Positions 4,220 through 62,761 of a DNA stretch of 64,000 nucleotides are shown here, in pieces (the stretch's first letter is position 1; every line of letters starts with the position of its first letter). A program made the translations under genes and the position numbers. This DNA is from Escherichia coli. GTDB lineage: Bacteria > Pseudomonadota > Gammaproteobacteria > Enterobacterales > Enterobacteriaceae. The DNA is taken from assembly GCF_030013595.1 (NCBI RefSeq), contig NZ_CP122768.1, one strand, 5' to 3'. The notes below the pieces were generated by a model. The model searched no databases, was not told the origin of the DNA, and saw nothing but the letters and a program-made list of their open reading frames with translations.

Positions 4220-4940
4220 GAATCAGAGTCTCGATTAGTTTGTCTGCTTCAATCCCAGATGCAGAAGCATTAAAGATTTTGAGATGAAGACCGGTCAATT
4301 TTTTCTCGGCGAGTGCTTCCTTTACATAAATATCAAGCGGCTTTAGTGAGCTTTCCTTAACAGGAACCTTTACAAATGGAAGCTTTATAAAAATTCTCGC
4401 CGCGACGCTATATAATGTAGGCGATAGTGGTTGATCTCGATATTCTGCAAACATCCTATCATCGACAACAATCGCTGAAACGCTTTCGAAGTTGTGCCCT
4501 TCTAACAACCTAAGCTCTTCCTCGCTGTAATAAAGAAAATATTTTTTAAAATAATATGGATTCTCTTCAATTCCAAACACCTTACTCTCAATTCCATTAA
4601 AATCAACTCGGTGCCTTAATTTATGCAAAATAATCAGATCGGTATTTTTATCGAAAGCAGGATCAGATTTGAATGTTTCAGGAGCATACAGTAACACTAA
4701 TTTATTCAGCACCTGCGGTGATGGTATATTTTCACACTCAACCACAGCGAGGAATCGCTTCCTATCTCCACTATCCTGACTAAAATAAGTCAAAGACTTA
4801 TAATCAACACCTTCAAGACCAGCTAAAGTTTCTCCTGCCGAATACTCTATGGTGACGTCATCTGCTTTAGAATAGTCGCCTGTATTAAACAAAGTAAACT
4901 CATGTTTCAAGGCAGCCTGTAGAACAATATCTTTAATCAT
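4185..4940 (-). CDS. Middle component (251 aa) of the three-gene ATPase operon; candidate LmuC/kleisin-like protein
   Basis: ORF track; overlaps the upstream gene by 8 nt and the downstream gene by 35 nt (translational coupling); AT-rich; no motif recognised by eye. Confidence 0.75.
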   Translation of the reverse strand: MIKDIVLQAALKHEFTLFNTGDYSKADDVTIEYSAGETLAGLEGVDYKSLTYFSQDSGDRKRFLAVVECENIPSPQVLNKLVLLYAPETFKSDPAFDKNTDLIILHKLRHRVDFNGIESKVFGIEENPYYFKKYFLYYSEEELRLLEGHNFESVSAIVVDDRMFAEYRDQPLSPTLYSVAARIFIKLPFVKVPVKESSLKPLDIYVKEALAEKKLTGLHLKIFNASASGIEADKLIETLIHEEMENIQPQD

Positions 4941-6195
4941 TCAACTTCACCCTCGCCTCTTCCTTTGAAATTATTTTTGCATCAAAGGCTTTAGTTATTT
5001 TGTTACGATCCTTACCCATCAATGAAAACTCATCTTCTACAGCATCCCGCGAAGCTCCGGTAGCTGCACAAAATCGCTCAGCGGGTGAAAAAATATTTGC
5101 TCTAGCTGCGATTAGCCATTGATATTCAACTAAGATATCTATCAGCTCTGGATCGCTTTTCAGCTGCTCTATTAGATCTTCAGCAAACCTATGCTCCCGT
5201 CGAGCATTGTCTGCCGAAATTGCTGTTGGCAAATAAAAATCTCCGGCAGAGCACCTATAGTAAGGAGGCTTTTGCTCACTCAGTGGCGCTTTATCTATAT
5301 CGTAGATCACATCCACATAATCATAAACACTGTTCTCACTCACGACCATTGTGGAAGATCCAAAACATAACGACTTCCACAACCATATAAATGGAGTATC
5401 ACCCAACTCTTTAATCTGATCGTAAACATTTGCAACTTTTTGAATAACAGTTCTATCTGCTGTTTTTTCCATTGTATTGGTATACCCATACAATGATTTA
5501 CAAACGGCCATCCTGGCTTGGAACATTTTGTATACAATGTCGTCTTCATGGGTAGCGGTGAGGCTTAATAACTCTACAATCTTCTCACTTTTTAAAGTTT
5601 GAGTAAACGCGGCTTGTGCGGCGCTCATTAACCCATCCTGATTGCACGCGTGTATATATATTACTTGAGCGGCAATATGACTCTGCAAAGCCTCGAACTT
5701 CAAATTCACTAAAAAATCACTGCAAGGTAACTCTTCGGAAACCAGGTACTTCTCAATTTTTGATTTCGTTTTTTCTTCAACATCTTGGAGATAGCAGTAA
5801 GGCAGTCCATCGTAAGTATAAAATTTAACGACATTCCCATTGCTGCCAACAAAATCAGAAGCATCATCAAGGCGCGCAGATGTATGAAAATATCTTTTGG
5901 TAGTCTTATCACACAACATATATGTAGATGCAGCTTTTTCGAGAGCCTCCCTATAGGCAGCTCTTTTATCATCTGCTAGCGCTTTTACCTGATGCGTAGA
6001 AACTGCAACTCCATTTTCAATTATCGAAAAATCATCAATGCTGTCGATTTGCAACTCAAACGACATTTTATTGAGCACACATTCTATGGAATGATAAAGC
6101 GCTAAATGCCCTTGATAAATAAACCCACTCCATGTAGGTGCAGCTGTATGAGGATGGGAGGAAGCCGATTTCGACATGCAATATGTCCTAGGCAA
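4933..6195 (-). CDS. Putative effector (420 aa) of the three-gene operon; candidate LmuA-like protein with possible N-terminal PD-(D/E)xK-type nuclease fold
   Basis: First gene of the minus-strand operon. N-terminal segment GFIYQGHLALYH...IDSIDDFSIIENGVAVSTHQVK contains a D...D...(E/Q)xK-like arrangement; assignment is by eye only. Alternative start at M7 (position 6177). Confidence 0.75.
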   Translation of the reverse strand: MPRTYCMSKSASSHPHTAAPTWSGFIYQGHLALYHSIECVLNKMSFELQIDSIDDFSIIENGVAVSTHQVKALADDKRAAYREALEKAASTYMLCDKTTKRYFHTSARLDDASDFVGSNGNVVKFYTYDGLPYCYLQDVEEKTKSKIEKYLVSEELPCSDFLVNLKFEALQSHIAAQVIYIHACNQDGLMSAAQAAFTQTLKSEKIVELLSLTATHEDDIVYKMFQARMAVCKSLYGYTNTMEKTADRTVIQKVANVYDQIKELGDTPFIWLWKSLCFGSSTMVVSENSVYDYVDVIYDIDKAPLSEQKPPYYRCSAGDFYLPTAISADNARREHRFAEDLIEQLKSDPELIDILVEYQWLIAARANIFSPAERFCAATGASRDAVEDEFSLMGKDRNKITKAFDAKIISKEEARVKLND

Positions 6196-6524
6196 ATTTA
6201 GAGACAGAGTCAGAAGTAACCTTCTAACTCAGTAGAATATGATCTTAATTTCTGTATCCGATGTTTATATTTTTTGTTGAACGCGCCCAGCGGCGTTATG
6301 AAAACTTCCTTGATTGTCATTTTTATGCATTCTCTTGATCGATAGGAATTTAAATCCCAAAAAGATTAAAAAAACACCCAAAAACGGATGTTTATTCGAC
6401 ACTGCCTGCGTGCCATGAGTGCACCGCCATCAATTAAATGGATCTTATCGAGTGATACTGTATATCACTGATGGTTTTTTACTCCATTCCCCTGAAAATG
6501 GACGCAACTTCCCCGATGCGGCTC

Positions 6525-7712
6525 TCAGCCGCACACCCGCTGTTGCGCCAGTGGCTCATGCATCAGGACCAGCTCTGTCAGACGGTAGCCCCGCTTCAGC
6601 CCCGTAAAACGCATCTGACATCCGCACAGGATGCACTTTAGCGGGTCAACCTTCAGTAACCGCTGATACATCCCTCTCCACCTGATTTGCATCGCCGTCT
6701 TTCTCACCGTCTCCGTTATGACGTACACAACATCTTCCAGTAACCGGCGCTTTACCGGACTCAGGAAACCGTAGTACCTCACCATACGGAACCCCTTATC
6801 CGCCACATGCCAGGAGAACCTTTCCATAAACTCATCACCACTCATCACCAGGTATTCTTCCCGTTTTGTCCGGTGACTGTTGTAACGCAGACCAATTTCA
6901 TCCTGACCAGCATAGTGCTCCAGACGGCTCATCGGCACCGGCGGTTTTTTCAGGTAAGAGCCGAAGTACACCGCCACATGTGTGGCGTTATCCATCACCC
7001 GGGATACGTTGACATTCCAGCCCCGCCGGTAATGACTGTCCAGGAAGCGATTCCAGTCCCGTCTGCTGCTTCCTTCAACTGCCAGCGCATCCGGTATCAC
7101 CAGCTCCGGGTATTTTCGTGACAGTAACCACGTTATCCTGTAACGCCACATGCTCATCACCTTACGGGCGTAAAAATGAAGGTTTTTCCAGGTGTGGTCT
7201 GGTGTCACGCCGCCGGCCGTTGTCGACAGGTGAATGTGCGGATGCCACTGCTGGTCACGTCCCCATGTGTGGATGACCGTGAATATCCCCGGCACCACAT
7301 CTGCCTGGCGGCAGATTTCCTGTATCACATCCGCAGCAATGCGGCTCATCTCTGCCAGTAACCACCGGTTGTGGAACACCAGGGACCAGTACTGGCAGGG
7401 AAGTGTGAACACAATATGCTGCCACGGACAGTCGGGAACCAGACTCAGCAGATACTGTATCCACTGTGCGCCAGCCTTCACTCCGCAGTGCGGGCAGGAG
7501 CGACTTTTACACCGGAAGCAGACCTTTTTTGTGTGGCAACAGTCCGGAGATGAACAGCACCACTGTGTGTACCCCATCAGCGTGGTTCCGCACGCCATGA
7601 TTTTTGTCACCGACTCAATGACTACCGGACGCACTGAACCTTCCGGTTGTTTCTCCAGCCAGTTAAGCCAGCGGTTTCCCTGCTGAAAAATGTCGGCAAA
7701 ACGGGGAAGCAT
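6525..7712 (-). CDS. tnpA: IS91-family transposase TnpA
   Basis: N-terminal Cys-rich zinc-binding region (CCSSPDCCH...CFRCKSRSCPHCG), HUH motif HPHIH, conserved Tyr-containing C-terminal region. Likely start at MLPRF (7712), sharing one nucleotide with the orf121 stop; ORF track extends to 7757. Confidence 0.85.
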   Translation of the reverse strand: MLPRFADIFQQGNRWLNWLEKQPEGSVRPVVIESVTKIMACGTTLMGYTQWCCSSPDCCHTKKVCFRCKSRSCPHCGVKAGAQWIQYLLSLVPDCPWQHIVFTLPCQYWSLVFHNRWLLAEMSRIAADVIQEICRQADVVPGIFTVIHTWGRDQQWHPHIHLSTTAGGVTPDHTWKNLHFYARKVMSMWRYRITWLLSRKYPELVIPDALAVEGSSRRDWNRFLDSHYRRGWNVNVSRVMDNATHVAVYFGSYLKKPPVPMSRLEHYAGQDEIGLRYNSHRTKREEYLVMSGDEFMERFSWHVADKGFRMVRYYGFLSPVKRRLLEDVVYVITETVRKTAMQIRWRGMYQRLLKVDPLKCILCGCQMRFTGLKRGYRLTELVLMHEPLAQQRVCG

Positions 7713-8077
7713 CAGAAGGGCGGGGGGACTCCGTCCGGCCAGTGAACCGTGCCACACTCCGGGCAGTACATGCCGCCGGCGCTGATACCGGCAAGAATGG
7801 TCGCAAACTCCCGCTCCGTGCAGCGGGCTATTTCAGGATACCCTTCGTCATCGACACGAACAAACCAGAAGACCAGCTTTTTGTTTCCGGCATCCACAAA
7901 GAAGGGAATATTCAGGTCTGCGCAGCACTCAACGGCATCGTCAAAATTATCAAAGCGCAGAGCTTCTGCGTCTTCTTCGTCAAAGAAGTCATCGTCGTGA
8001 AGCTTCACGACATAGCGGGGAAGTTTGCTTCTTTGAGGGGCAGGTTTTCGTTTACGGGGTTTAGCTGAACGGGACAT
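7712..8077 (-). CDS. IS91 accessory ORF (ORF121-like, 121 aa)
   Basis: 121-aa ORF immediately upstream of and overlapping tnpA, as in IS91. Confidence 0.65.
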   Translation of the reverse strand: MSRSAKPRKRKPAPQRSKLPRYVVKLHDDDFFDEEDAEALRFDNFDDAVECCADLNIPFFVDAGNKKLVFWFVRVDDEGYPEIARCTEREFATILAGISAGGMYCPECGTVHWPDGVPPPF

Positions 8078-8964: not shown

Positions 8965-9864
8965 TTATCGCCCCGTAGTGGATATCAGAAAATCAATCAG
9001 GGCCTTCACTCTTTTCGTTTTACCCGCGTTTTTGGGGTAATAGAGATACACTGGCGGGTAGGTTTTCCAGTAGCTCTCCATCACCGGAATAAAGCGCTCC
9101 CTGTCCGGCTGTAACTGCCAGACAGGCTCAAACAAGCGCCCAATTCCCAGCCCGTTACGGATCCCGTCTGCCATAACGTCAATATCGTTGCTGATTAACT
9201 GCCCCGGCATCTCAACGGTCAACTGCTCACCGCGATCGTTCAGGAGCAGCGGAAGGATGCGGTTGTTGGTGATAAAACGGTAACCAATCAGCTGGTGATG
9301 ACAGAGATCTGCCGGCACTTCAGGCGTTCCATGTCGGGAGAGATACGCTGAGGATGCATATAATCCTTCACGAAACGGTTTCATTAACGGTCGGGCCACC
9401 ACCCCTCCCTCAAGAATATCGCCAAAACGGATCCCCAGATCAAAACGCTCTTTGATGATATTCACGGTACCGTCGTAGACCGAAATTTCTAACTGTATAC
9501 CCGGATATTGCTGACAGAATTCTGCCATCGCAGGCTTAAGAATTAACAGGTAGGCAAAACGCGAGAGCGTAATTCGCACCATCCCAGAGGGCTCCTGATG
9601 CTGGTCGCGAATGCTTTCAAGCGAGTTTTCCAGCGACTCCACCGCCGCAGCGGTCTGTTCCAGCAATAATTGACCGGTTTCCGTCAGCTCTATACGGCGG
9701 GTCGTACGCACAAAAAGCGGATGGCCGATATACTCTTCCAGCAGCTTTAGTGCATTGCTGACGGAGGGAGGCGTAATTTCCAGTTTCCTTGCGGCTGCCG
9801 AAATATTGCCCTCCCGCGCAATGCTCTGGAAGATGCGAATCTGGTTATAAAGAGCGTTATTCAT
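8965..9864 (-). CDS. LysR-family transcriptional regulator
   Basis: 299 aa; N-terminal HTH (ISAAARKLEITPPSVSNALKLLEE) and LysR substrate-binding domain; divergent from the downstream oxidoreductase operon. Confidence 0.9.
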   Translation of the reverse strand: MNNALYNQIRIFQSIAREGNISAAARKLEITPPSVSNALKLLEEYIGHPLFVRTTRRIELTETGQLLLEQTAAAVESLENSLESIRDQHQEPSGMVRITLSRFAYLLILKPAMAEFCQQYPGIQLEISVYDGTVNIIKERFDLGIRFGDILEGGVVARPLMKPFREGLYASSAYLSRHGTPEVPADLCHHQLIGYRFITNNRILPLLLNDRGEQLTVEMPGQLISNDIDVMADGIRNGLGIGRLFEPVWQLQPDRERFIPVMESYWKTYPPVYLYYPKNAGKTKRVKALIDFLISTTGR

Positions 9865-12031: not shown

Positions 12032-12133
12032 AGCCCGTCCGGAACAGACTGTCATGAATGACACACACGAACGGGCTGTTCCGGGTGATTCTAATCTGTA
12101 TCACTTTTACTGCTTTGTATGAATGGTGAGAAT

Positions 12134-12812
12134 ATGAAAATCATTTGCCTCGAAGAAAATTATCTCGACAGCGAGTTAGGGCGAGCGTGTATGCCTGTTG
12201 CGCTTGAGCAGGCACCTTTCCTTGGCGACTGGGGGAAAACCGTCGCTGATGGTCATAATCCTGACCGACTCCCTGCTTTCCCGCTTTAATAAACTGAATG
12301 TGCCACTCTATCTTCATCCCGGGTTACCGCTTAAAAGCGTACAGCAGGCCTACTTCACGGGCTTCAGCGCAGAGGTCAACGCCAGGCTTTCTATGTTTGC
12401 CTGGGGCTGGCATCACGAAGCGGGGATCCATTTGTTGCGGCTGATGTTATCGGGTGCATTTGATAAATATCCCCACTTGCAGGTAATCAGTGGCCACTGG
12501 GGGGAGATGTTACCCTTCTGGCTCCAGCGTCTTGATGACAGCCTACCACTGGCTGCAACGGGTCTGTCACGCACGCTAACGAGAACCTTCCAGCAACACG
12601 TTTACGTTACCCCGTCAGGTATGCTGACACTGCCGCACTTCAAGTTTATCTACGCGTTAATGGGGGCTGAAAGGATCCTGTTCTCCGTCGATTATCCCTA
12701 TCAGACCCCTGGACGGTGTAAAAACCTTTATAGACAGTCTGCCCGTCAACAAGGCTGAAAAAGAGGCCATCGCGTTTCGCAATGCAGAACGTTTACTGGG
12801 CATCACGGTTTA
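12134..12812 (+). pseudogene. Disrupted amidohydrolase-2 family gene (frameshifted/truncated)
   Basis: Three consecutive frames carry pieces: MKIICLEENY... (12134-), the 186-aa ORF 12198-12758 (…ISGHWGEMLPFWLQRLDD…FSVDYPYQ…) and a C-terminal tail …KEAIAFRNAERLLGITV ending ~12812. No single intact ORF. Confidence 0.55.
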
Positions 12813-12963
12813 GTTCACCGTTTCATGATGACTGAGCACATTGTGATCAGCCGACAATTATTAGTTTTTGCCTAAAAGTGAATGAGCCTTTACTGCTCTA
12901 AAAAAATAATGTTGTCACTCTATACTGGATTTAATATTCACCAAAGATGTTTAACTGATTGAA

Positions 12964-13536
12964 ATGAAAAATATCCTTGTTATTTCAGGTCATCCTGAGC
13001 TTACCCATTCCGTCGCCAATGCCACTATTCTTGATGAAGTGGAGACCGCCCTTCCCGATGTTGAGATTCGTCGTCTGGACAGGCTCTATCCGGATGGCAA
13101 ATTCAACATCGCGGCGGAGCAGAAAAGCCTGCTCAGGGCCGATGTGATTGTCTGGCAGTTCCCTTTTTCCTGGTATGGGCTGCCAGGATTAATGAAAAAA
13201 TGGCTGGACGAGGTCTTTGTTCACGGCTTCGCGCATGGCTCAACGGCGAAACTGGGCGGTAAAAAGCTGATCCTCTCCTTTACAACGGGAGCGCCAGAGG
13301 AGCTCTATACCGTCGACAGTTTCTTTGGCCATACCATTGAAGAGTATCTTATTCCGTTCGAAACCACGGCAAGGCTGTGCAATCTTGAGCTGCTGGCGCC
13401 GGTTTATACCTGCGGTATCAGCTATGCCGACCGGGATGCCGACAAAATCGCGCAGCAAAAAACGCTTGCCCGGGAACACGCTTCAAGGCTTGTCGAACTG
13501 CTCAATTCCGTCGTGAATAATCCAGAGGGAGAATAA
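12964..13536 (+). CDS. Flavodoxin-like NAD(P)H dehydrogenase (quinone) family protein
   Basis: 190 aa; MKNILVISGHPE... N-terminus and size typical of NAD(P)H:quinone oxidoreductase / KefF-like proteins. Confidence 0.75.
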   Translation: MKNILVISGHPELTHSVANATILDEVETALPDVEIRRLDRLYPDGKFNIAAEQKSLLRADVIVWQFPFSWYGLPGLMKKWLDEVFVHGFAHGSTAKLGGKKLILSFTTGAPEELYTVDSFFGHTIEEYLIPFETTARLCNLELLAPVYTCGISYADRDADKIAQQKTLAREHASRLVELLNSVVNNPEGE

Positions 13537-13538
13537 CA

Positions 13539-14558
13539 ATGCAGTATACCCGGCTCGGTAAAAGTGACTTACTTGTTTCCCGCATCTGCATGGGATGCAT
13601 GGGGTTTGGCGATCCGTCGACGGGTCAGCATAGCTGGACGCTGGACGAAACAGCAAGCCGCGACATCATTCGCTATGGCCTTGAAAAGGGCATCAACTTT
13701 TACGATACCGCTATAGCCTACCAGAATGGCTCCAGTGAGCGATACGTTGGCCGGGCATTACGGGAGATGGCGAAACGCGATGATATCGTCCTGGCCACCA
13801 AGTTTCTGCCGCGAACCCCCGCACAAATTGCCGGAGGGATCAGCGGAAAAGAGGCAATCGCTCAATCCCTTGACCAGAGCCTGAAGAATCTGGGGATGGA
13901 CTATATCGACCTCTACATCTACCACATCTGGGATTACAACACGCCCATTATCGACGTGCTTGAAGCGTTACATACCGCTGTTACTGCTGGCAAAGTACGA
14001 GCTGTTGGTATTTCAAACTGCTATGCCTGGCAGCTGGCGAAGGCGAACGCCCTTGCTGAACGCGAAGGGCTGACGCCCTTTGTTTCCGTACAGAGCCACT
14101 ACAATCTAATTATGCGCGAAGATGAACGGGAGCTCTTCGGCCTGTGCACTGAGGATAATATCGCAATGACCCCCTATAGCGCGCTGGCCAGCGGCCGCCT
14201 CTCTCGTAAAGAAGGCTATACACGGCGAGCCACAGAGGATGACTATGCGCGTGGAAAATATGACAGCACGGCTGAACAGGATCGCAACATTATTGAGCGT
14301 GTAGCCGAACTGGCCGAACGTCATCTGGTGTCAATGACGGAAATATCTCTCGCTTGGCTGCTGACAAAAGTCACATCACCTGTCGTAGGGGCTACAAAAA
14401 AAGCTCATGTCGATGGCGCGGTAAACGCAGTAAATCTTCAACTAAGTCCGGAGGAAATTCAGTTTCTGGAAGAAACCTACCAGCCGCATGTTCTGACGGG
14501 GATCATGGCGCAAAATACGCCGCAAACGAAAGATGTTAAGCAGGTCTGGATGCGATAG
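13539..14558 (+). CDS. Aldo/keto reductase family oxidoreductase (Tas/YajO-like)
   Basis: 339 aa; AKR hallmarks (…INFYDTAIAYQNGSSE…, …GISNCYAWQ…). Confidence 0.85.
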   Translation: MQYTRLGKSDLLVSRICMGCMGFGDPSTGQHSWTLDETASRDIIRYGLEKGINFYDTAIAYQNGSSERYVGRALREMAKRDDIVLATKFLPRTPAQIAGGISGKEAIAQSLDQSLKNLGMDYIDLYIYHIWDYNTPIIDVLEALHTAVTAGKVRAVGISNCYAWQLAKANALAEREGLTPFVSVQSHYNLIMREDERELFGLCTEDNIAMTPYSALASGRLSRKEGYTRRATEDDYARGKYDSTAEQDRNIIERVAELAERHLVSMTEISLAWLLTKVTSPVVGATKKAHVDGAVNAVNLQLSPEEIQFLEETYQPHVLTGIMAQNTPQTKDVKQVWMR

Positions 14559-14673
14559 CCCTTATTCACTTTTCCTCCTCTCGTCTTTGAGAGCGCCAGT
14601 AGCGGTCGGTTACGTTCTTACCAGCACCAGTTGATCGAACGTCTTAAACAGTAATGTCAGTAAAAAGATCATC

Positions 14674-15399
14674 GTGAAAAAGACTTTTATGCTTTTAATT
14701 TGCATGCTAATAAGCAGCCCTGTCTTTGCAACAAAACCGGACGCGCCGAATAAGCCGGAGATGAATATCTTCGAGCTCGGCATCAGACCCGATCGGGACA
14801 ACGACTTTGCAGACGTGGCCAGACAGACGATTTCCGCTTCGGTTGATCATGAAGCTGGTACACTGGCGATGTATGCCCTGAAACGCAGCGACAATTCAGG
14901 TCAGGCATTCATGTTCGAACTCTATGAAAATGAGCGTGCTTATCGCAAACATCTCAATGCCGCCCCATACAAAGCATTCGCTGCTCGTGCACCTGACATT
15001 ATTGACAGGAAGAAGAAAATTACCCTGGAGCCACAGTTTCTGGGCGACAAACACATCATACCGAATGAACGAACTATCAATAATCTGGTGATCGTCGAAG
15101 TAAAGCCTGAATTTCAGAGCGAATTTAGAAACATCGTCCTTCCTGAAATGGTCGAGTCGCTCAAAGTAGAGAAAGGCGTGTTAGCCATGTATGCCGGTAC
15201 AGATTCAGAGACTCCAAAACGATGGTATTTCTATGAGATTTACGCCAGTGAGGAGGATTATCAACTGCACCGACAAACGCTGCACTTCCTGGATTACCTC
15301 AGGCAAACGGCGCATATGAGCGCCAGGAAGGACGCAATCCCGGTAAAACCGGTATTTCTTCGTAACAAAGGCGGAATCAAACAGGAGCCGCAACGTTGA
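14674..15399 (+). CDS. Secreted tandem ABM (antibiotic-biosynthesis-monooxygenase-like) domain protein
   Basis: 241 aa; N-terminal signal-peptide-like MKKTFMLLICMLISSPVFA; two repeats of similar length, each with an ...AMYAL/AMYAG...YE.Y...Y..H pattern. Confidence 0.65.
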   Translation: MKKTFMLLICMLISSPVFATKPDAPNKPEMNIFELGIRPDRDNDFADVARQTISASVDHEAGTLAMYALKRSDNSGQAFMFELYENERAYRKHLNAAPYKAFAARAPDIIDRKKKITLEPQFLGDKHIIPNERTINNLVIVEVKPEFQSEFRNIVLPEMVESLKVEKGVLAMYAGTDSETPKRWYFYEIYASEEDYQLHRQTLHFLDYLRQTAHMSARKDAIPVKPVFLRNKGGIKQEPQR

Positions 15400-15414
15400 C
15401 CAGTAAGGATTAAC

Positions 15415-16218
15415 ATGAAAAGCGTACTTGCAGCAGCGGCTATGTCGCTTGTTATTTCTGATTTTGCCAATGCTGAGGAAACAAGAGGTAAAGCTATGAT
15501 GAAAATAGAACCGTCAGCGATTTCGGAAGCTGATATTCGTTCCGTCTCACCGGCTCTCGCGCGCTTTGGTCGCGAAGCTATTACTGAAGATCTGTGGACA
15601 CGCGACGCCCTCTCACCGAGGGATCGTAGTGTGGTGACCGTCGCCATGCTGATTGCCCGCAACCAGCCTGCCGAGCTTAAGCACTATATTGACGTCGCTC
15701 TCGATAGCGGCGTGACGCCAGCGGAATTATCAGAAATCATTACCCATCTGGCGTTCTACTCAGGTTGGCCAAATGCAATGTCAGCCGTCAGCGTGACCAA
15801 AGCAGTATTTGAAACTCGTGGCGTCACGGCAGATGCACTTCCTGAAGCTTCTCCGGACCTGCTTCCTCTCAATCAGGAAGCAGAAAAGCAGCGTTCAGAG
15901 ACAGTGGAAAAAAATGTTGGCCCAATATCTCCAGGCCTGGTTAAATTCACTGCTGATCCACTCTTCCTGGATCTCTGGCAAAGACCCGCGCTGAAACCCC
16001 GCGACAGAAGCCTGATTACGGTCAGCGCCTTAATCGCATCCGGACAGAGCGCGCAGATTGGCTATCACCTCAATAGAGCAATGGATAATGGACTTTCTGT
16101 TGAGGAAGCTGGTGAGATCGTTACCCAGGCCGCCTTCTATGCTGGCTGGCCAAACGCATTTACCGCTGCTCCGGTTGTGGGAGAGGTGCTAAACAATCGA
16201 TCATCGAGTAAAAGGTAA
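15415..16218 (+). CDS. Tandem carboxymuconolactone-decarboxylase (CMD) family protein, possibly exported
   Basis: 267 aa; two repeats each with ...LW.R.ALSPRDRS..TVA.LIA... and ...HL.RA.D.G...E..E...H.AFY.GWPNA... motifs; hydrophobic N-terminus. Confidence 0.7.
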   Translation: MKSVLAAAAMSLVISDFANAEETRGKAMMKIEPSAISEADIRSVSPALARFGREAITEDLWTRDALSPRDRSVVTVAMLIARNQPAELKHYIDVALDSGVTPAELSEIITHLAFYSGWPNAMSAVSVTKAVFETRGVTADALPEASPDLLPLNQEAEKQRSETVEKNVGPISPGLVKFTADPLFLDLWQRPALKPRDRSLITVSALIASGQSAQIGYHLNRAMDNGLSVEEAGEIVTQAAFYAGWPNAFTAAPVVGEVLNNRSSSKR

Positions 16219-16632
16219 CATTACTGAACACTAAAACCTGACGCACATCACAAAATTAGAACGATCAGTTCATGAACCAACAGACGTGACATCGAGTGAT
16301 TTATGGACAGCGTTTAACACAGTTATGAACCAAAACTGAGTTCATAACTGTGAGTTTGAATCGTCATTTGATTAATATCCATTTAAAACAGTTTGTTATG
16401 CTGTTTCTGGTGCTGAAGTCAATTATGTATATCCCTCAAACCCAGAATAGTTAAATGGAATTTGAGTGATGCGAAGCGATTTTACGGTCGTCGTTATTAC
16501 TTCAGGGTTCCAGAACATAAAGCCTCTCCTCTTTCATGATTGGCCTGTGCATACCGGATATAGGCTGGCTGGTATGCAGGTTTGCCGTTTGCCGCATCTT
16601 CCCTGCGTTGAAGAGTCAGGCTGGCAAACCGC

Positions 16633-16887
16633 GTGCAAATGAACACCCCCTCTTTCCATCAACACTTCAGACAGCTTGCGGGAATGAGTCCACTCCGGTA
16701 TCAGAAATGGCTACGCCTCAATGAAGCCAGGCGACTGATGCTGAATGAACATTACGATGTCACCACTGCAGCCTATGCTGTCGGTTACGAAAGCTTATCC
16801 CATTTCAGTCGGGAATATTCGCGGATGTTTGGAGAGTCACCTAAGAGAGATATTGCCAGGTTAAGAAAGTCTGTCGGTCAGCTTTAA
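16633..16887 (+). pseudogene. yneL: AraC-family regulator remnant (C-terminal HTH only), yneL-like
   Basis: 84-aa ORF carrying only an AraC C-terminal HTH (…FHQHFRQLAGMSPLRYQKWLRLNEARRLML…LSHFSREYSRMFGESP…); no N-terminal domain upstream. Matches the position of the K-12 yneL remnant next to the yde fimbrial genes. Confidence 0.6.
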
Positions 16888-17320
16888 TAAACCCTGCACT
16901 TATCTGTTTAAAGCAATTCCGTGTTAGTTACACCAGGCAAACATTAACTATGGCTAATGATTTATAGCCATATAAACCATTGGTCGCTCTTGACCTTTCC
17001 TGACACTTCCCTTGTTCGCAATAATATTCTGTTTAGTCGCTGTTTATAAATAACATGCATAATGAAATCGTAATGTTATTTAGCGACATAAAATGTCTTT
17101 GCAAATACTCTCTACAACAAGTGCTGCAATAAACTTGTTGTGATTAGGTGTCCTTGTAATTTAAAGATATTATCGTTCTTCGTGAAATGTAATAACCCTG
17201 GAAACTATATTCTCAGGGCAATATCCCATCAAGAATGATTCTTGTTTTATAAGCAATAACAGAATGACTTAATTGTTAACTTTCTTTATTCAGCTACTTA
17301 AATATAAATTTTGGAGAATT

Positions 17321-32885: not shown

Positions 32886-35258
32886 ATGAAGCGAGTTCTT
32901 ATTCCTGGCGTCATTTTATGTGGCGCTGATGTGGCGCAGGCCGTCGATGACAAAAACATGTACATGCATGTTTTTGAAGAGATGACGGTCTATGCTCCTG
33001 TCCCTGTACCCGTAAACGGCAATACGCATTACACCAGTGAAAGCATCGAGCGTTTACCGACCGGGAATGGCAATATCAGCGATCTGCTGAGAACCAACCC
33101 TGCTGTGCGCATGGATTCAACGCAAAGTACCTCGTTGAACTAGGGAGATATTCGCCCGGAGAAAATCTCTATTCACGGTGCGTCGCCCTACCAGAATGCC
33201 TATTTGATTGATGGTATTAGTGCAACTAATAACCTGAACCCAGCGAATGAGTCCGATGCCAGTAGTGCAACCAATATTAGCGGGATGTCACAGGGGTATT
33301 ATCTAGATGTCAGCTTACTTGACAATGTGACGCTTTATGACAGTTTTGTGCCGGTTGAATTTGGTCGCTTCAATGGCGGGGTAATTGATGCAAAGATCAA
33401 ACGCTTCAATGCTGATGATAGCAGCGTGAAACTGGGTTATCGCACTACGCGTTCGGACTGGTTAACATCGCATATCGATGAGAATAACAAGAGCGCATTT
33501 AATCAAGGTTCTTCAGGAAGTACTTATTACTCTCCAGATTTTAAAAAGAACTTTTATACCTTGTCGTTTAATCAGGAACTGGCTGATAACTTCGGCGTTA
33601 CCGCCGGTTTATCGCGCCGCCAGTCTGATATCACCCGCGCGGATTATGTTTCGAATGACGGCATTGTCGCCGGTCGGGCACAGTATAAAAACGTTATCGA
33701 TACCGCAGTGAGCAAATTTACCTGGTTTGCCAGCGACCGCTTTACCCACGATTTAACATTAAAATATACCGGCTCCAGTCGTGATTATAATACCAGCACC
33801 TTCCCGCAGTCTGATCGTGAAATGGGTAATAAATCCTACGGTCTGGCATGGGATATGGATACGCAGCTCGCAAGGGCCAAACTACGTACCACCGTTGGTT
33901 GGGATCATATTAGTGATTATACCCGTCACGATCATGACATCTGGTACACCGAACTTTCATGTACATATGGTGATATTACAGGGCGTTGCACCCGTGGCGG
34001 ATTAGGACACATTTCCCAGGCTGTAGATAATTACACCTTCAAAACACGCCTGGACTGGCAAAAATTCACCGTGGGTAATGTTTCGCATCAACCCTACTTC
34101 GGCGCGGAATACATCTATTCCGATGCATGGACTGAACGCCATAACCAGTCTGAATCCTATGTGATTAATGCTGCCGGAAAGAAAACTAACCATACCATTT
34201 ACCATAAAGGTAAAGGCAGCCTGGGAATTGACAACTACACGCTGTATATGGCGGATCGCATTAGCTGGCGTAATGTGTCATTAATGCCCGGCGTGCGGTA
34301 TGACTATGACAACTATCTGTCAAACCACAATATCTCCCCGCGCTTTATGACGGAATGGGATATTTTTGCTGATCAAACCTCAATGATTACCGCCGGTTAT
34401 AACCGTTACTATGGCGGGAATATTCTTGATATGGGATTACGTGATATCCGCAATAGCTGGACGGAATCGGTATCAGGAAATAAAACCCTGACGCGTTATC
34501 AGGATTTGAAAACACCTTATAACGATGAACTGGCAATGGGGTTGCAGCAGAAAATCGGTAAGAACGTTATTGCGCGTGCAAACTATGTTTATCGTGAAGC
34601 GCATGATCAAATCAGTAAAAGCAGTCGTACCGACAGCGCGACTAAAACCACCATTACTGAATATAACAACGACGGCAAAACCAAAACGCATTCGTTCAAC
34701 CTCAGTTTTGAACTGGCCGAACCCCTGCATATCAGCCAGGTAGATATTAACCCGCAAATTGTCTTTAGCTATATCAAGAGCAAGGGCAACTTGTCGTTAA
34801 ACAATGGTTATGAGGAAAGCAATACCGGCGATAACCAGGTGGTTTATAACGGTAATCTGGTCTCTTACGATAGCGTTCCAGTGGCAGATTTTAATAACCC
34901 ATTAAAGATCTCCTTAAACATGGATTTCACGCATCAACCGAGCGGGTTGGTGTGGGCGAATACGCTGGCCTGGCAAGAAGCGCGTAAAGCTCGCATTATC
35001 CTGGGTAAGACGAATGCGCAATACATCAGCGAATATTCAGATTACAAGCAGTATGTTGACGAAAAACTGGATAGCAGCCTGACCTGGGACACCCGCTTGT
35101 CCTGGACGCCACAATTTCTGAAACAACAAAACCTGACGATCAGTGCCGATATTCTCAATGTACTGGATAGCAAAACCGCGGTTGATACAACGAATACCGG
35201 TGTGGCGACCTACGCCAGTGGCCGTACTTTCTGGCTTGATGTCAGCATGAAATTTTAA
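32886..35258 (+). pseudogene. yddB: TonB-dependent outer-membrane receptor YddB interrupted by an in-frame amber codon
   Basis: N-terminal 85-aa ORF (signal peptide) ends at a stop at 33141-33143; the same frame continues (GDIRPEKISIHGASPYQNAYLIDG…) into the 684-aa ORF 33204-35258. Single in-frame nonsense codon rather than a frameshift. Confidence 0.8.
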
Positions 35259-58170: not shown

Positions 58171-58824
58171 TTATATCCCTTCTTCACTCTCTTTTTTCGC
58201 TTCTGCCTTCTCGATTTCACGATACCAGCGCGGATGGTGTTTCTTCGCCCAGCGACGGCTCACCTTTCCTTCGATCATCCCTTTAATCGATCCTTTCACC
58301 CAGAATGCCATATACATATGGATCAGGATGGCGTGGATCAGGATGATACCCGCAGCCGCGTGGATCAGCAGGCTATAACGGACAACCTGTATCGGGAAGT
58401 ACTGCGCAAAGTACGGACGCCAGATAATCACCCCGGTCACCAGCAGCACGAAAATCATGCTCATGATCGACCAGAACATCATCTTTTGCCCGGCGTTGTA
58501 CTTACCAACATCCGCCACTTTGTGCTCATTGCCTTTTAATACTTCGACAATGTTCAACAGCCACGGAATATCTTTCTTATCCGGGATGTTGTGATGCACA
58601 AAACGCACAAACATAAACATCAGCGCGACGAAAATCGCAATGCCGAAGAACGGGTGCAAAATGCGCCCCATCTGCGGCGTACCGAAGGTTTGCGTCAGCC
58701 ATTGCAGCGTCGGGAAGAAGAACGAAATCCCGGACAGCGCCACCAGGAAGAAGCAAATCACCACGGTCCAGTGACAGGCGCGATCAATAAATTTGGTGCG
58801 CACAATCATTTTCGACTTACTCAT
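58171..58824 (-). CDS. fdnI: Formate dehydrogenase-N cytochrome b556 subunit
   Basis: 217 aa from [12 protein letters not shown]; 4 TM helices with haem-ligand His; overlaps fdnH by 8 nt. Confidence 0.95.
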
Positions 58825-59701
58825 GATGATCCTCCTCGTCATCGTCCACTTCCTTATTCGGGCCAATACCGATGTAGTGGAAAATCAACCCGGCAAAAGT
58901 GGCAATAAAGCCAGCCGCTGCCAGCGGTTTCAACGCGCCTTTCCACAGGCTTACCGAGGTGTCGATCTTCGGATCTTTCGGCAGACCGTGATACAGCTCC
59001 GGCTGATCGGCATGATGCAGCACGTACATGACATGCGTACCACCGACCCCTTCCGGGTTGTAGACGCCAGCATGTTCGTAACCACGCGCTTTCAGTTTCG
59101 CCACGCGCTGTTCCGCCAGCTCCAGCATCTCCTTCTTGGTACCGAAGTGGATAGCCCCGGTCGGACAGGTTTTCACACAAGCCGGTTCCTGGCCGACGCT
59201 GACGCGATCGACGCAGAGCGTGCATTTATATACCCGGTTATCCTCTTTGTTGAGGCGCGGAATATTAAACGGACACCCGGCAATGCAGTAACCACAGCCG
59301 ATGCAGTTTTCCGACTGGAAATCGACAATCCCGTTAGCGTACTGAATGATTGCACCAGCAGACGGGCACGCCTTCAGGCAGCCCGGAGCTTCACAGTGCA
59401 TACAGCCGTCTTTACGGATCAGCCACTCCAGCTTGCCGTTCTGTTCGGTTTCGCTAAAGCGCATCACCGTCCAGGACTTGGCGCTCAGATCGGCGGGGTT
59501 ATCGTAAACCCCGACGCAGTGCCCCACTTCATCACGGATGTCGTTCCACTCCGAACACGCCACCTGACAGGCTTTACAACCGATACAGGTGGAAACGTCG
59601 ATAAGTTTCGCGACTTCTGCTTTGTAATCACGCACCTGAGAAGGCGGCGTGATGGAGTTAGTTGCGGACCTTTTGATAATGTCCTGCGTTTCCATAGCCA
59701 T
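58817..59701 (-). CDS. fdnH: Formate dehydrogenase-N iron-sulfur subunit
   Basis: 294 aa; four CxxCxxCxxxC ferredoxin-type clusters; C-terminal TM anchor. Confidence 0.95.
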
Positions 59702-59713
59702 CTGTTCGCCCCC

Positions 59714-62700
59714 TTACGCCTTCTCAATGTTGACTAAGAACGCTTTATATTCCGGCGTTTGCGAGTTTGCATCACCGACATTCGGCGTCAGAGTGTTAGC
59801 GATATAACCTTTACGCGCGACACCCTCAAAGCCCCAGTGGATTGGAATACCCACCGTTTCAACCTGCTGACCGTTTACATTCAGCGGCTTCAGACGGCGC
59901 GTTACCACAGCCACCGCGCGGATAAAGCCACGCTTGCTGGATACGGTGACACGGTCGCCATTGGCGATGCCTTTCGCCGCCGCCAGCGTTTCGCTGATTT
60001 CCACAAACTGTTCCGGCTGAGCAATGGCGTTGAGCAATGCATGCTTAGTCCAGGTGTGGAAGTGCTCGGTCAAACGATAGGTCGTACCCACATACGGGAA
60101 CTGCTCTTTTTTACCCATCCGCAGCGCGTCTTGTTCATACAGACGAACGACCGGGTTAGACACCACGTTCGGATGCAGCGGGTTAGTGCCCAGCGGCGTT
60201 TCAATTGGCTCGTAGTGTTCCGGGAACGGACCTTCCGCCATTTTGTTGATGGCAAACAGGCGTCCCATCCCTTCCGGCTGCATGATAAACGGTCCGGTTG
60301 GCGTACCTGGCGCGGCATTGCCGAAGTCAGGAATATCGTTACCCGTCCACTTGCTGCCGTTCCACTGGATCAGCATCCGTTTCGGATCCCACGGTTTACC
60401 GTTGATATCCGCCGAAGCACGGTTGTAGAGTACGCGACGGTTGAGCGGCCACGCCCAGGCCCATCCCAGCGTATTCCCCAGACCGGACGGGTCGGAGTTA
60501 TCGCGGTTAGCCATCTGGTTGCCCTGCTCTGTCCAGCTACCGGTGTAGATCCAGCAAGACGATGCGGTTGTACCGTCATCACGCAGATGCGCAAAGCTAC
60601 TCAGCAACTGACCTTTCTTCGCAATCAGCACGCCATTAGCATCATAGAGATCTTCCAGCGCATAGCCGTTATTCTCTTTCGCCACTTCGTCAGACTGCGG
60701 TTCGTGCGGCTGCTTGTAGTTCCAGCTCATCTTCATCAGCGGTTCTACGCCTTTACCACCTTCGGCCTGGTACAGCTCGCGCAGATGATGGTAGATACCC
60801 GCCAGAATTTCGCCGTCGTTACGCGCTTCGCCCGGCGCGTCCTGACCTTTCCAGTGCCACTGCAACCAGCGACCGGAGTTAGCAATAGAACCATCTTCTT
60901 CAGCAAAGCAGGTCGAAGGCAGACGGAATACTTCAGTCTGAATAGACGCCGGATCGACATCGTTCGACTCGCCGTGGTTCTGCCAGAAGGTAGAAGTTTC
61001 AGTCACCAGCGGATCGATTACCACCATGTACTTCAGCTTGCTCAGGCAGCTCACCACTTTGTTTTTGTCCGGGAAGGACGCAACCGGGTTAAAGCCCTGG
61101 CAGAAATAACCGGTGACTTTGCCTTCGTCCATCATGTTGAAATACTTGATGACGTCGTAGGTCTGGTCCCACTTCGGCAGCCAGTCGTAGCCCCAGTTGT
61201 TCTCTTTTTGCGCGGCATCGCCGTAGAAAGATTTCATCAGGCTAACGAAGAACTTCGGATAGTTGCTCCAGTAGTTCACCTGATCAGCCAGCGTCGCTTT
61301 CGGCGTATTCGCTTCCAGATACGACTGCAAATCAACCTGTTTTTCTGACGGCAGCGTCAGATAACCCGGCAGGCTGGTTGAGAGCAGACCTAAGTCGGTC
61401 AGGCCCTGAATGTTGGAGTGACCACGCAATGCGTTCACGCCGCCACCAGCCATACCCATGTTACCGAGCAGCAATTGGATCATCGCCATGGTGCGGATGT
61501 TCTGCGCACCCACGGTGTGCTGCGTCCAGCCCAGCGCGTACAGGAAGGTGGTAGTGCGATCCGGCGCGCTGGTGGAGGCCAGCACTTCACACACTTTCAG
61601 GAAGTCGGCTTTTGGCGTACCGCAGATGTTTTCAACGACGTCCGGCGTGTAGCGGGAAACGTGCTCTTTCAGCAAGTTCCACACACAGCGCGGATGAGTC
61701 AGTGTTTCATCGCGTTTCGCATAGCCGTTTTCATCGAACTGATAGTTCCAGGACGATTTATCGTACTGGCGTTTTTCAGCGTCATAACCGCTGAACAGGC
61801 CATCTTCGAAAGCAAAATCATCACGCACCAGCAGGCTGGCGTTGGTGTAATGCTTAACGTATTCGGCGTTGATTTTGTTGTTTTCGATCAGGTAGCGCAA
61901 AACGCCAGACAGGAACGTAATGTCCGTACCGGAACGAATAGGTGCGTAAATATCCGCCACAGAAGCGGTACGCGTAAAACGGGGATCGACAACGATCAAG
62001 GTTGCATCGTTGTTGTTTTTCGCTTCCATCGCCCAGCGGAAACCGACGGGATGCGCTTCCGCAGCGTTACCACCCATCACCATTACGACGTTAGCGTTTT
62101 TGATATCCACCCAGTGGTTGGTCATCGCACCGCGACCAAATGTTGGAGCAAGACTTGCTACCGTTGGTCCGTGTCAGACGCGCGCCTGGTTGTCTACCGC
62201 CAGCATCCCGAGGGAGCGGGCAAATTTTTGAGTCAGCATCCCGGTTTCGTTGCTGGCACCGGAGGCACACAGCATACCGGTAGAAAGCCAACGGTTTACC
62301 GTTACGCCCTGCTCGTTCTTTTCAATAAAGTTAGCGTCACGGTCAGCTTTCATCAGCTTCGCAATACGGGAGAATGCTTCTTCCCAGCTAATGCGCTGCC
62401 ATTTGTCAGAACCTGGCGCACGATATTCCGGGTAGCGCAGACGGTTTTCGCTGTTGACGTAATCCAGCAAACCGGCCCCTTTCGGGCACAGCGCACCACG
62501 GCTTACCGGATGATCCGGGTCACCTTCAATGTGATAAATCGCTTCTCTGGCGTTTTTCGCGCCATCACCCAGGCTATACATCAATAGCCCGCAACCTACG
62601 GAACAATATGTGCAGGTGTTACGGATCTCTTTAGCGCGTAATAATTTGTAGTTTCGCGCCTGAGCCAGTGCTTGCTTCGGGGCAAAGCCCAATGCCGCTA

Positions 62701-62761
62701 CCGTTGTTCCAGCCATACCGCCCGCGCAGATTTTAAAAAATTGTCTGCGACTGACGTCCAT
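59714..62761 (-). CDS. fdnG: Formate dehydrogenase-N catalytic selenoprotein subunit (Sec codon read-through)
   Basis: Two ORFs (62174-62761 and 59714-62125) in the same frame joined by an in-frame TGA at 62174-62176; Tat signal (SRRQFFK); joined product ~1015 aa matches recalled FdnG (…DNQARV-U-HGPTVASLAPTFGRGAMTNHW…). Confidence 0.95.
62128..62176 (-). other. Selenocysteine UGA codon (62174-62176) with downstream SECIS-type hairpin region
   Basis: In-frame TGA followed on the mRNA by CACGGACCAACGGUAGCAAGUCUUGCUCC…, which can form a stem-loop immediately 3' of the UGA as expected for a bacterial SECIS. Confidence 0.8.

Follow-up and report, generated by a model that had tools for sequence, protein, structure and literature searches.

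In the window (the whole 64-kb stretch of Escherichia coli DNA analysed), fdnG, encoding the alpha subunit of formate dehydrogenase-N, occupies 59714-62761 on the minus strand, as shown by translation and the match to 1KQF_A, and as annotated by RefSeq in K-12 and in the closest genome. The CDS has 1,016 codons including the terminal TAA and, on translation, a sole internal stop, TGA at codon 196 (62174-62176, minus strand; the plus-strand letters here read TCA because fdnG lies on the minus strand). The same operon contains fdnH (beta subunit; 58817-59701, minus strand; a 294-aa ORF whose position was carried over from the closest genome's RefSeq annotation) and fdnI (gamma subunit; 58171-58824, minus strand; placed from the same annotation, at a locus-to-window offset of 55,899, and from the ORF list). 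On the other side of fdnG is yddG (62993-63874, plus strand), on which the closest-genome and K-12 RefSeq annotations agree. In both annotations the gene order yddG / fdnGHI / yddM / adhP is that of the K-12 fdn locus; the fdo locus consists of fdoGHI-fdhE adjoining fdhD. By synteny and sequence identity the gene is assigned as fdnG, the name it had been given in an earlier sequence-only reading, and not as its paralogue fdoG.

The FdnG product, which carries an N-terminal twin-arginine signal (MDVSRRQFFK), comprises 1,015 residues with Sec196 counted, and matches 1KQF_A, the E. coli Fdh-N alpha subunit of solved structure, over residues 1-1015 (2,397 bits, 99.7% identity, 3 substitutions in 1,015 aa). 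The TGA aligns with X196 of 1KQF_A, the selenocysteine (written X), not Trp, of the crystal structure; this bears out the claim that it is the known Sec codon of formate dehydrogenase-N, as do the same codon in K-12 fdnG and fdoG and the orthologues discussed below. Sec196 is the molybdenum ligand in the active site of the catalytic subunit of this respiratory enzyme, and the surrounding peptide reads ...NQARV-U-HGPTVASLAPTFGR. As the sequence-only reading had noted, the TGA splits the ORF track: mechanical ORF listing gives two pieces in the same frame, 62174-62761 (195 aa plus stop) and 59714-62125 (803 aa, counted from its first ATG). Past the TGA the frame is open again already from 62173, not from that ATG, and continues for 819 codons. 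The further statement that naive ORF calling mis-annotates fdnG holds for such mechanical listing but not for curated pipelines such as RefSeq/PGAP, where fdnG is annotated as one 3,048-nt CDS, with no pseudogene flag, in both the closest strain and K-12.

A selenocysteine insertion element (SECIS) was matched at this codon. The Rfam model SECIS_3 (RF01989; gathering score 63 bits) aligns at 62121-62179 (minus strand) over its full, untruncated length (model positions 1-59), with 84.3 bits and E = 1.4e-18, and this is the sole gathering-level Rfam match in the 64-kb window. The complete hairpin, with lower and upper helices, spans 62131-62173 (minus strand; MFE -12.7 kcal/mol; topology as in the Rfam consensus) and begins at the first base after the UGA (62173), in agreement with the predicted hairpin-capable SECIS directly downstream; the span proposed for the site, 62128-62176, contains the UGA and the whole hairpin. 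The upper stem-loop, GGUAGCAAGUCUUGCUCC (62145-62162, minus strand), is probably the SelB-binding core. It is 18 nt long and folds alone as ((.(((((...))))))) at -4.5 kcal/mol; U 62160 is bulged, and GUC (62152-62154) forms the apical loop. From the UGA it is 11 nt to the start of the upper stem, and the loop G (62154) is the 20th nt, the rule given in PMC4605307 being a loop G ~20 nt after UGA.

In all sequence and structural features, the fdnG element agrees with the bacterial (bSECIS) model as set out in PMC13188914. The Fig. 2 legend of that paper gives an apical loop of 3-9 nt and an upper stem of 4-16 bp; here the loop is GUC (3 nt) and the upper stem has 7 bp plus one bulged U; when the closing A-U is left unpaired, these become AGUCU (5 nt) and 6 bp. 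The model also asks for a G at loop position 1, 2 or both, in the pattern N1-G-[G|U]-N-N2 where N1 pairs with N2, and A-G-U-C-U at 62155-62151 fits it exactly, with A/U pairing. The distance from UGA to apical loop is 19 nt (62173-62155), or 18 nt with the 5-nt loop, against 16-37 nt in the same description, and the energies of -14.6 (49-mer) and -12.7 kcal/mol (43-mer) lie below its limit (MFE ≤ -7.5 kcal/mol) while not differing significantly from those of shuffles. The in-frame UGA stands at a position held by Sec or Cys in homologues. SelB binding and the requirement for the element are taken from the identical K-12 sequence, for which a citation in PMC13188914 (Berg, Baron & Stewart 1991) describes the fdnG stem-loop as experimentally essential for UGA decoding; the covariation and the association of hairpin with TGA, given below, lend this indirect support.

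Folding stability was rejected as a discriminating test, because the z-score of the fdnG element is insignificant (-1.45 for the 49-mer, whose energy was equalled or bettered by 19 of 200 shuffles; ~-2.1 for both the 43-mer and the 18-mer) and the experimentally proven fdhF SECIS also reaches only -1.23. A geometry-only core motif (UGA, 11 nt, GGU-N4-RGUYU-N4-CC; one-mismatch setting) occurs once in the window, exactly at the fdnG site, but this count excludes chance only weakly, since 0.22 occurrences are expected by chance and one or more turned up in 20 of 100 shuffles. It is the E-value of the SECIS_3 match that puts the site far beyond chance. The window has three TGA junctions flanked in the same frame by 150 or more open codons on either side, and only that of fdnG is backed by homology or a SECIS. 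The junction at 15397 was rejected as a recoding site, as it parts an ABM monooxygenase gene from an unrelated gene for a CMD-family protein, as was that at 39276 (minus strand), which is antisense to gadB. The in-frame stop of yddB, a truly interrupted gene, is TAG and was likewise rejected. The Rfam search of the 64-kb window returned no SECIS at any of these three places.

Compared with K-12 fdnG, the window gene has the same codon number for the UGA and the same operon, neighbours and SECIS, with strain-level divergence only elsewhere: 71 of 3,048 nt differ, giving three amino acid changes (L342F, S666A and N933A, K-12 to window), none near the recoding site, and the 101 nt around it (gene nt 560-660) are identical. 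The proposed alignment with K-12 and the proposed SECIS prediction both came out positive. The 59-nt SECIS is also identical in K-12 fdoG, which has the same SECIS_3 match (84.3 bits) and a UGA at codon 196, but lies in another locus and operon, and outside the element the paralogues have diverged (74.5% nucleotide identity between genes overall, 77% between proteins). Their longest identical run, frozen at 71 nt, starts at codon 195 and extends 19 nt beyond the hairpin (next longest run, 35 nt); after the UGA, 17/17 codons capable of synonymous change are identical, against a background of 57% (p ~7e-5).

The fdhF SECIS is the best-studied bacterial SECIS, and the fdnG element resembles it in the UGA followed by CACGG, in an upper stem that starts with GGU 11 nt on and has a bulged U, in the G-U of the apical loop and in having the loop G 20 nt on from the UGA. 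It differs in belonging to another Rfam family (SECIS_2, RF01988, for fdhF), in the loop (GGUC, 4 nt, in fdhF; GUC/AGUCU in fdnG), in stem sequence and lower helix, and in the position of the UGA (codon 140 of fdhF); fdhF also encodes a cytoplasmic enzyme (formate dehydrogenase-H).

Orthologous sites in other species were collected with a sample anchored on the QARV[U/C]HGP coding motif and limited to 120 loci, which is neither unbiased nor complete, so that all counts here are among the matches listed. TGA is found at 109/114 of these sites and a Cys codon at 5/114 (e.g. Snodgrassella alvi L008, Vogesella L023 and L050). In the upper helix, 4/7 pairs show compensatory changes among the matches listed and 96.6% of cells are paired, against at most 49.5% in slid controls. 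Columns 24/30 pair as A-U, C-G and G-C and columns 21/33 as G-C, A-U and C-G (again among the matches listed); both are third codon positions, so this covariation cannot be put down to protein constraint. The loop U, likewise a third codon base, is the same in 109/109 TGA loci, and 69/71 distinct TGA sequences among these matches have the loop G. The Cys-type orthologues listed belong to the same protein family and share the active-site motif QARV-x-HGPTV, but have TGT or TGC for TGA, have lost the upper hairpin in 5/5 cases (2-5 of 7 pairs, +0.6 to +10.5 kcal/mol) and lack the loop G in 4/5; among the matches listed, hairpin energy is favourable where the codon is TGA and positive for each of the 5 Cys codons. 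The exact 59-mer is common to 19 loci from other Enterobacterales in the sample, with flanks 70-94% identical to the window.

The lower helix of the fdnG SECIS is weakly supported. Across species (among the matches listed) its consensus pairs (model positions 7-16 / 41-49) are formed in 83.9% of cells, and 7/9 form in the window sequence, with no double-sided covariation in the cross-species alignment of these matches. RNAalifold, run on the 71-sequence alignment, recovered the 5 apical pairs but not the Rfam lower helix, proposing instead that columns 6-10 pair with 17-20; because of this different proximal pairing no firm claim is made for the lower helix.

Several other accounts of the interrupted frame were weighed. 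Were the gene fdoG (formate dehydrogenase-O), the recoding site would be unchanged and only the name wrong, and the shared 59-nt SECIS and codon number would fit; but identity is 99.7% to Fdh-N (1KQF_A) against 77% to FdoG, and the neighbours are yddG, fdnH, fdnI, yddM and adhP, not fdhD, fdoH, fdoI and fdhE. Neither highest identity to FdoG nor an fdo operon context was found, and this identity was rejected as extremely improbable. A nonsense mutation, leaving an fdnG pseudogene and a 195-residue fragment, would produce the two pieces seen in mechanical ORF calling, and yddB shows that a truly interrupted gene does occur in the same window. Such a mutation is very unlikely given that K-12 fdnG and fdoG share the TGA at this codon, as do 109/114 of the other-species sites listed, and given the SECIS after the codon, the RefSeq annotation without a pseudogene flag and the 819 further open codons, with a product that matches the crystallised enzyme at 99.7% identity. 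The native 81-mer around the UGA also has an exact match in 5,371 E. coli records, with 36 records differing at 1-4 positions. The same counts bear on the idea that sequencing or assembly turned a Cys codon (TGC or TGT) into TGA by mistake. Cys at this position would find precedent in the five Cys-type sites among the 114 listed, and a Cys codon on resequencing is what the sequence-only reading had named as the outcome that would overturn it. In complete E. coli genomes neither the TGC nor the TGT version of the 81-mer has an exact match (best 98.8%), so that exact matching revealed no Cys codon, and the hairpin lost from Cys-type orthologues is intact in the window; an error of this kind is scarcely credible.

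Another account accepts that the UGA is read through but makes the process mainly SECIS-independent, by near-cognate decoding (e.g. by tRNA-Trp), with the conservation due to protein constraint or to conversion between fdnG and fdoG. SECIS-independent UGA readthrough of ~5-8% has been reported with an fdhF reporter (PMC4513850), the high conservation of the peptide that follows, HGPTVASLAPTFGRGAMTN, extends to Cys-type orthologues, and the 71-nt paralogue identity, passing the hairpin by 19 nt, would fit a conversion tract. Against this, the paired third-codon positions covary (24/30 and 21/33), the synonymous-site loop U is invariant (109/109 TGA loci among the matches listed), and the hairpin vanishes exactly at the Cys-codon sites though the peptide there is similar. 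Within-genome gene conversion cannot account for the 59-mer, because it is common to distant genera in which the flanks are only 70-94% identical. Residue 196 in the crystal structure is, moreover, Sec and not Trp. Mainly near-cognate readthrough is held to be highly improbable. The site is almost certainly the selenocysteine recoding site of E. coli fdnG, an ordinary case in which an already known Sec codon and SECIS are confirmed, and no result of the analysis speaks against it.

On this reading, the UGA at codon 196 would be read as selenocysteine and not as a stop in translation, with the mRNA directly 3′ of it folding into the SECIS hairpin. Following the Sec-insertion mechanism described in PMC4513850 and PMC4605307, the apical 18-nt stem-loop, with its bulged U and loop G-U, would be bound by the C-terminal winged-helix domains of SelB, which would carry GTP and Sec-tRNA(Sec), the tRNA being the selC product charged via SerRS, SelA and SelD; a ribosome arriving at the UGA would unwind the lower helix. 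For the window, SelB binding, actual Sec insertion and competition with RF2 are inferences from what has been published for K-12, where the sequence is identical. The 64-kb window contains no selA, selB, selC or selD (it has no tRNA gene, and the annotated neighbours include no sel gene). At species level, where the presence of selABCD had been proposed as a check, selA/selB are found in 5,425/5,426 complete E. coli genomes, selD in 5,425/5,426 and selC in 5,424/5,426, that is, each gene in at least 5,424; from this near-universality it is very likely that the source strain has all four.

In the 59-nt element (over 71 nt when the two E. coli paralogues are compared) all synonymous sites are frozen in both fdnG and fdoG across distant genera, yet the lower helix is uncovarying and imperfectly paired. 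This leaves room for sequence-specific selection on the lower stem and linker in Enterobacterales, beyond the 18-nt apical hairpin, a suggestion that we regard as speculative and rather unlikely. If it were true, the lower stem and linker may contact the ribosome entry channel or SelB, or control pausing or recoding efficiency; recurrent gene conversion between fdnG and fdoG could also be involved in the frozen synonymous sites.

No open question is made more testable by the fdnG finding, and its value is that of an annotation check: pipelines that read TGA as nothing but a stop split fdnG into fragments of 195 aa and 803 aa. In the same window, fdnG provides a clean positive control beside the true pseudogene yddB with its in-frame TAG. 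As judged from its sequence, the window fdnG is intact and most likely functional, and contains one of the three canonical selenoprotein recoding sites of E. coli.

The fdnG gene (59714–62761, minus strand) contains a TCA on the plus strand at 62174–62176, read as TGA on the mRNA strand. Translation of the whole interval gives one frame of 1,016 codons with a terminal TAA and codon 196 as the sole internal stop. As the sequence-only reading had noted, this in-frame TGA splits the ORF: a mechanical listing returns two same-frame minus-strand pieces, one of 195 aa at 62174..62761 and one at 59714..62125, whose first ATG opens 803 aa. The accompanying warning of mis-annotation applies to naive ORF finders only, since RefSeq (PGAP) is not misled and gives fdnG as a single 3,048-nt CDS in both the closest genome (NZ_CM149870.1) and K-12 MG1655. 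With the stop replaced, residues 1–1015 of the product align, with three substitutions, to chain A of 1KQF/1KQG (E. coli nitrate-inducible formate dehydrogenase, major subunit), in which an X at 196 lies opposite the stop. Residue 196 of 1KQF is the selenocysteine (Sec) that ligates molybdenum. The UGA falls where a selenoenzyme of known structure has its Sec, and its earlier assignment as the Sec codon of formate dehydrogenase-N is borne out by this alignment.

Top DNA matches (5,426 complete E. coli genomes searched) carry fdnG annotation and adjoin yddG. In both NZ_CM149870.1, where fdnG differs by 3 nt from the window copy, and K-12 MG1655, fdnG has yddG as its neighbour to one side and fdnH, fdnI, yddM and adhP to the other. 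Differences from K-12 fdnG amount to 71 nt and 3 aa and, judged by sequence and neighbours, the gene is identified as fdnG of a strain other than K-12.

Scanning the whole 64-kb window with Rfam 15 at gathering thresholds gave one match only, SECIS_3 (RF01989) at 62121–62179 (minus strand), covering the full model length (84.3 bits, gathering score 63; E = 1.4e-18). Numbered by the model, the UGA is at 4–6, the lower helix pairs 7–16 with 41–49 and the upper helix 18–25 with 29–35, with U20 bulged and G26-U27-C28 as the loop. Mapped to the window (minus strand), the complete hairpin lies at 62131–62173, the upper stem-loop (GGUAGCAAGUCUUGCUCC) at 62145–62162, the bulged U at 62160 and the apical loop at 62152–62154; the interval marked from sequence alone (62128–62176) takes in the UGA and the entire downstream hairpin. 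ViennaRNA folds of 49-, 43- and 18-nt segments give the Rfam topology, and the SECIS proposed directly 3′ of the UGA is thus recovered by both covariance model and folding. The minimal upper stem-loop is separated from the UGA by 11 nt, reportedly as in classical E. coli minimal-SECIS work. The element agrees at every point with the bacterial SECIS model as outlined in PMC13188914: the loop is GUC, or AGUCU (model 3–9 nt), A-G-U-C-U fitting the pattern N1-G-[G|U]-N-N2 with G within the first two loop positions; the upper stem has 6–7 bp (4–16 bp), UGA-to-loop spacing is 18–19 nt (16–37 nt) and MFE is -12.7 to -14.6 kcal/mol (-7.5 kcal/mol or lower). The loop G is exactly nucleotide 20 after the UGA, as described for bacterial SECIS elements (PMC4605307).

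This SECIS_3 member is identical in sequence to the characterised elements of K-12 fdnG and fdoG, the fdnG identity being confirmed by the K-12 alignment proposed earlier as a check; the fdhF SECIS (Rfam SECIS_2) works alike, though its loop and stem have other sequences. Experiments in K-12 established that the fdnG stem-loop is required (Berg, Baron & Stewart 1991, J Biol Chem 266:22386, as cited in PMC13188914). Going by published work, SelB-GTP-Sec-tRNA(Sec) would bind the apical stem-loop via its C-terminal winged-helix domains, and RF2 would end translation only on ribosomes where Sec insertion fails (PMC4513850, PMC4605307). None of selA, selB, selC and selD, and no tRNA gene, was found within the 64-kb window. 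As these genes are near-universal in the species (selA-selB and selD each in 5,425/5,426 complete E. coli genomes, selC in 5,424/5,426), we strongly infer that selABCD are present in this strain.

Folding stability alone is not significant for the fdnG SECIS (z = -1.45 to -2.1); even for fdhF, whose SECIS is proven, z is only -1.23. A geometry-only SECIS motif occurs once in the window, at the fdnG site; with 0.22 matches expected by chance at the one-mismatch setting, and at least one in 20/100 shuffles, the motif count alone is weak support. The longest identical run between fdnG and fdoG is 71 nt from codon 195 (second longest, 35), and all 17 synonymous-capable codons after the UGA are identical, against a gene-wide rate of 57% (p about 7e-5), a pattern indicating constraint at synonymous sites. 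The weight is carried by the covariance-model E-value, paralogue constraint, hairpin-TGA link and covariation, not by stability.

With GTDB species represented by a single genome each, a scan for the coding motif Q-A-R-V-[TGA/TGC/TGT]-H-G-P gave at least 120 loci. Among the matches listed, 109/114 fully flanked sites have TGA and 5/114 a Cys codon. Of the 71 distinct TGA versions of the 59-nt SECIS_3 span (59-mers) in these matches, 69 have the loop G at +20 and at least 5/7 upper-helix pairs, with favourable hairpin energy in 68 of these 69, and 61 keep all seven pairs. All five Cys-type sequences listed form only 2–5 of 7 pairs, their energies are positive, and four lack the loop G, with the encoded peptide nearly unchanged. 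In an ungapped alignment of 71 sequences from the matches listed, 96.6% of upper-helix cells are paired, with both-sided changes in 4/7 pairs; overall pairing is 89.4%, falling to 49.5% or less when 3′ partners are slid 1–3 columns, and covariation exceeds that of all 500/500 column shuffles. RNAalifold independently recovers five apical pairs. Among the matches listed, a hairpin of canonical geometry, conserved and covarying, occurs only where the codon is UGA. Two Desulfovibrionales orthologues, L030 (Candidatus Desulfovibrio gallistercoris) and L061 (Mailhella sp.), keep TGA at the QARV-TGA-HGP site without the SECIS_3 upper hairpin or loop G at +20 (2–3 of 7 pairs), and presumably use a hairpin placed differently.

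Reading the TGA as a nonsense mutation in an fdnG pseudogene, or as a sequencing error for a Cys codon, is contradicted: an 81-mer centred on codon 196 is found unaltered in 5,371 E. coli records, while its TGC or TGT version has no exact match among E. coli records (best 98.8%), and the Cys codon named beforehand as the refuting observation is absent. A further 36 records differ from the 81-mer at 1–4 positions; 26 match at 90–95% only (e.g. NZ_CP061758.1, with a single copy labelled fdnG) and probably represent fdoG only. On plasmid records of the E. coli genome collection, the fdnG/fdoG 81-mer has seven matches. Misidentification of fdoG as fdnG is likewise contradicted, fdoG being excluded by its different neighbours (fdhD, then fdoGHI-fdhE) and by an identity of only 77% aa and 74.5% nt.

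SECIS-independent readthrough, with conservation due to protein constraint or gene conversion, is also contradicted. Columns 21/33 (G-C, A-U, C-G; Val/Ala) and 24/30 (A-U, C-G, G-C; Ala/Leu) of the alignment are third codon positions, so their covariation is not due to protein constraint; the loop U, another third codon position, is unchanged in 109/109 TGA loci listed. Within E. coli, gene conversion between fdnG and fdoG could be one source of the 71-nt identity, but it does not explain the exact 59-mer in 19 listed loci of other Enterobacterales (Providencia, Photorhabdus, Yersinia, Citrobacter, Enterobacter, Klebsiella, Superficieibacter and E. albertii). Flanks of these loci are 70–94% identical to the window and share the same synonymous codon in only about 51–58%, a descriptive contrast and no test, the subset having been chosen for identity.

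Elsewhere in the window, yddB (TonB-dependent receptor; 32886–35258, plus strand) has an in-frame TAG at codon 86 (33141–33143), for which the Rfam scan of the window gave no SECIS match; as it is also flagged ‘internal stop’ in NZ_CM149870.1, yddB is a true pseudogene, helpful as a negative control when set against the fdnG TGA. The TGA at 15397, where two open stretches of one frame meet, was rejected as a recoding site, as it merely divides two unrelated genes. The ORF of ydeP (24018–26297, plus strand), a molybdopterin oxidoreductase paralogue of the FdnG superfamily, is uninterrupted: it lacks an in-frame TGA, and the same scan gave no SECIS match for it. A three-gene ABC-3C (ABC-three-component) cluster within 1892–7757 (minus strand), annotated alike in NZ_CM149870.1, encodes an AAA/SMC-like ATPase (1892–4219; 775 aa), Middle Component 1 (4185–4940; 251 aa) and a CTD1 protein with a weakly Cap4-nuclease-like N-terminus (4933–6195; 420 aa); it adjoins an IS91-family (Y2) transposase gene (6525–7757, minus strand) and looks like a candidate defence island. 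About 9.5 kb from an aldo/keto reductase gene to fimF (~12100–21650, plus strand), including genes for an ABM monooxygenase (14674–15399) and a CMD-family protein (15415–16218) and a fimbrial usher-sized ORF (19387–21651; 754 aa), is replaced in NZ_CM149870.1 by an ISVsa5 insertion and truncated fimF. A LysR gene (8965–9864) is intact here and a pseudogene in that genome. Outside the window, K-12 locus L004, beside fdhF, has five tandem Rfam matches to naRNA4 (REP-derived nucleoid-associated RNA) at 912–1432, between yjcO and gltP.

The lower helix is poorly supported: 7/9 pairs form in the window sequence and 83.9% are paired across the 71-sequence alignment, where columns 7–16 and 41–49 show no double-sided changes and RNAalifold does not predict the helix. 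This agrees with published unwinding of the lower part by the ribosome sitting on the UGA, which leaves the upper part for SelB (PMC4513850). Synonymous sites in the lower helix (62131–62144 and 62163–62173, minus strand) are frozen across Enterobacterales genera and in both paralogues. Indeed, throughout the whole 59–71 nt, synonymous sites are frozen across Enterobacterales, and this extends to the lower stem and linker, which do not covary. The fdnG recoding site is already known and is of use as a positive control.
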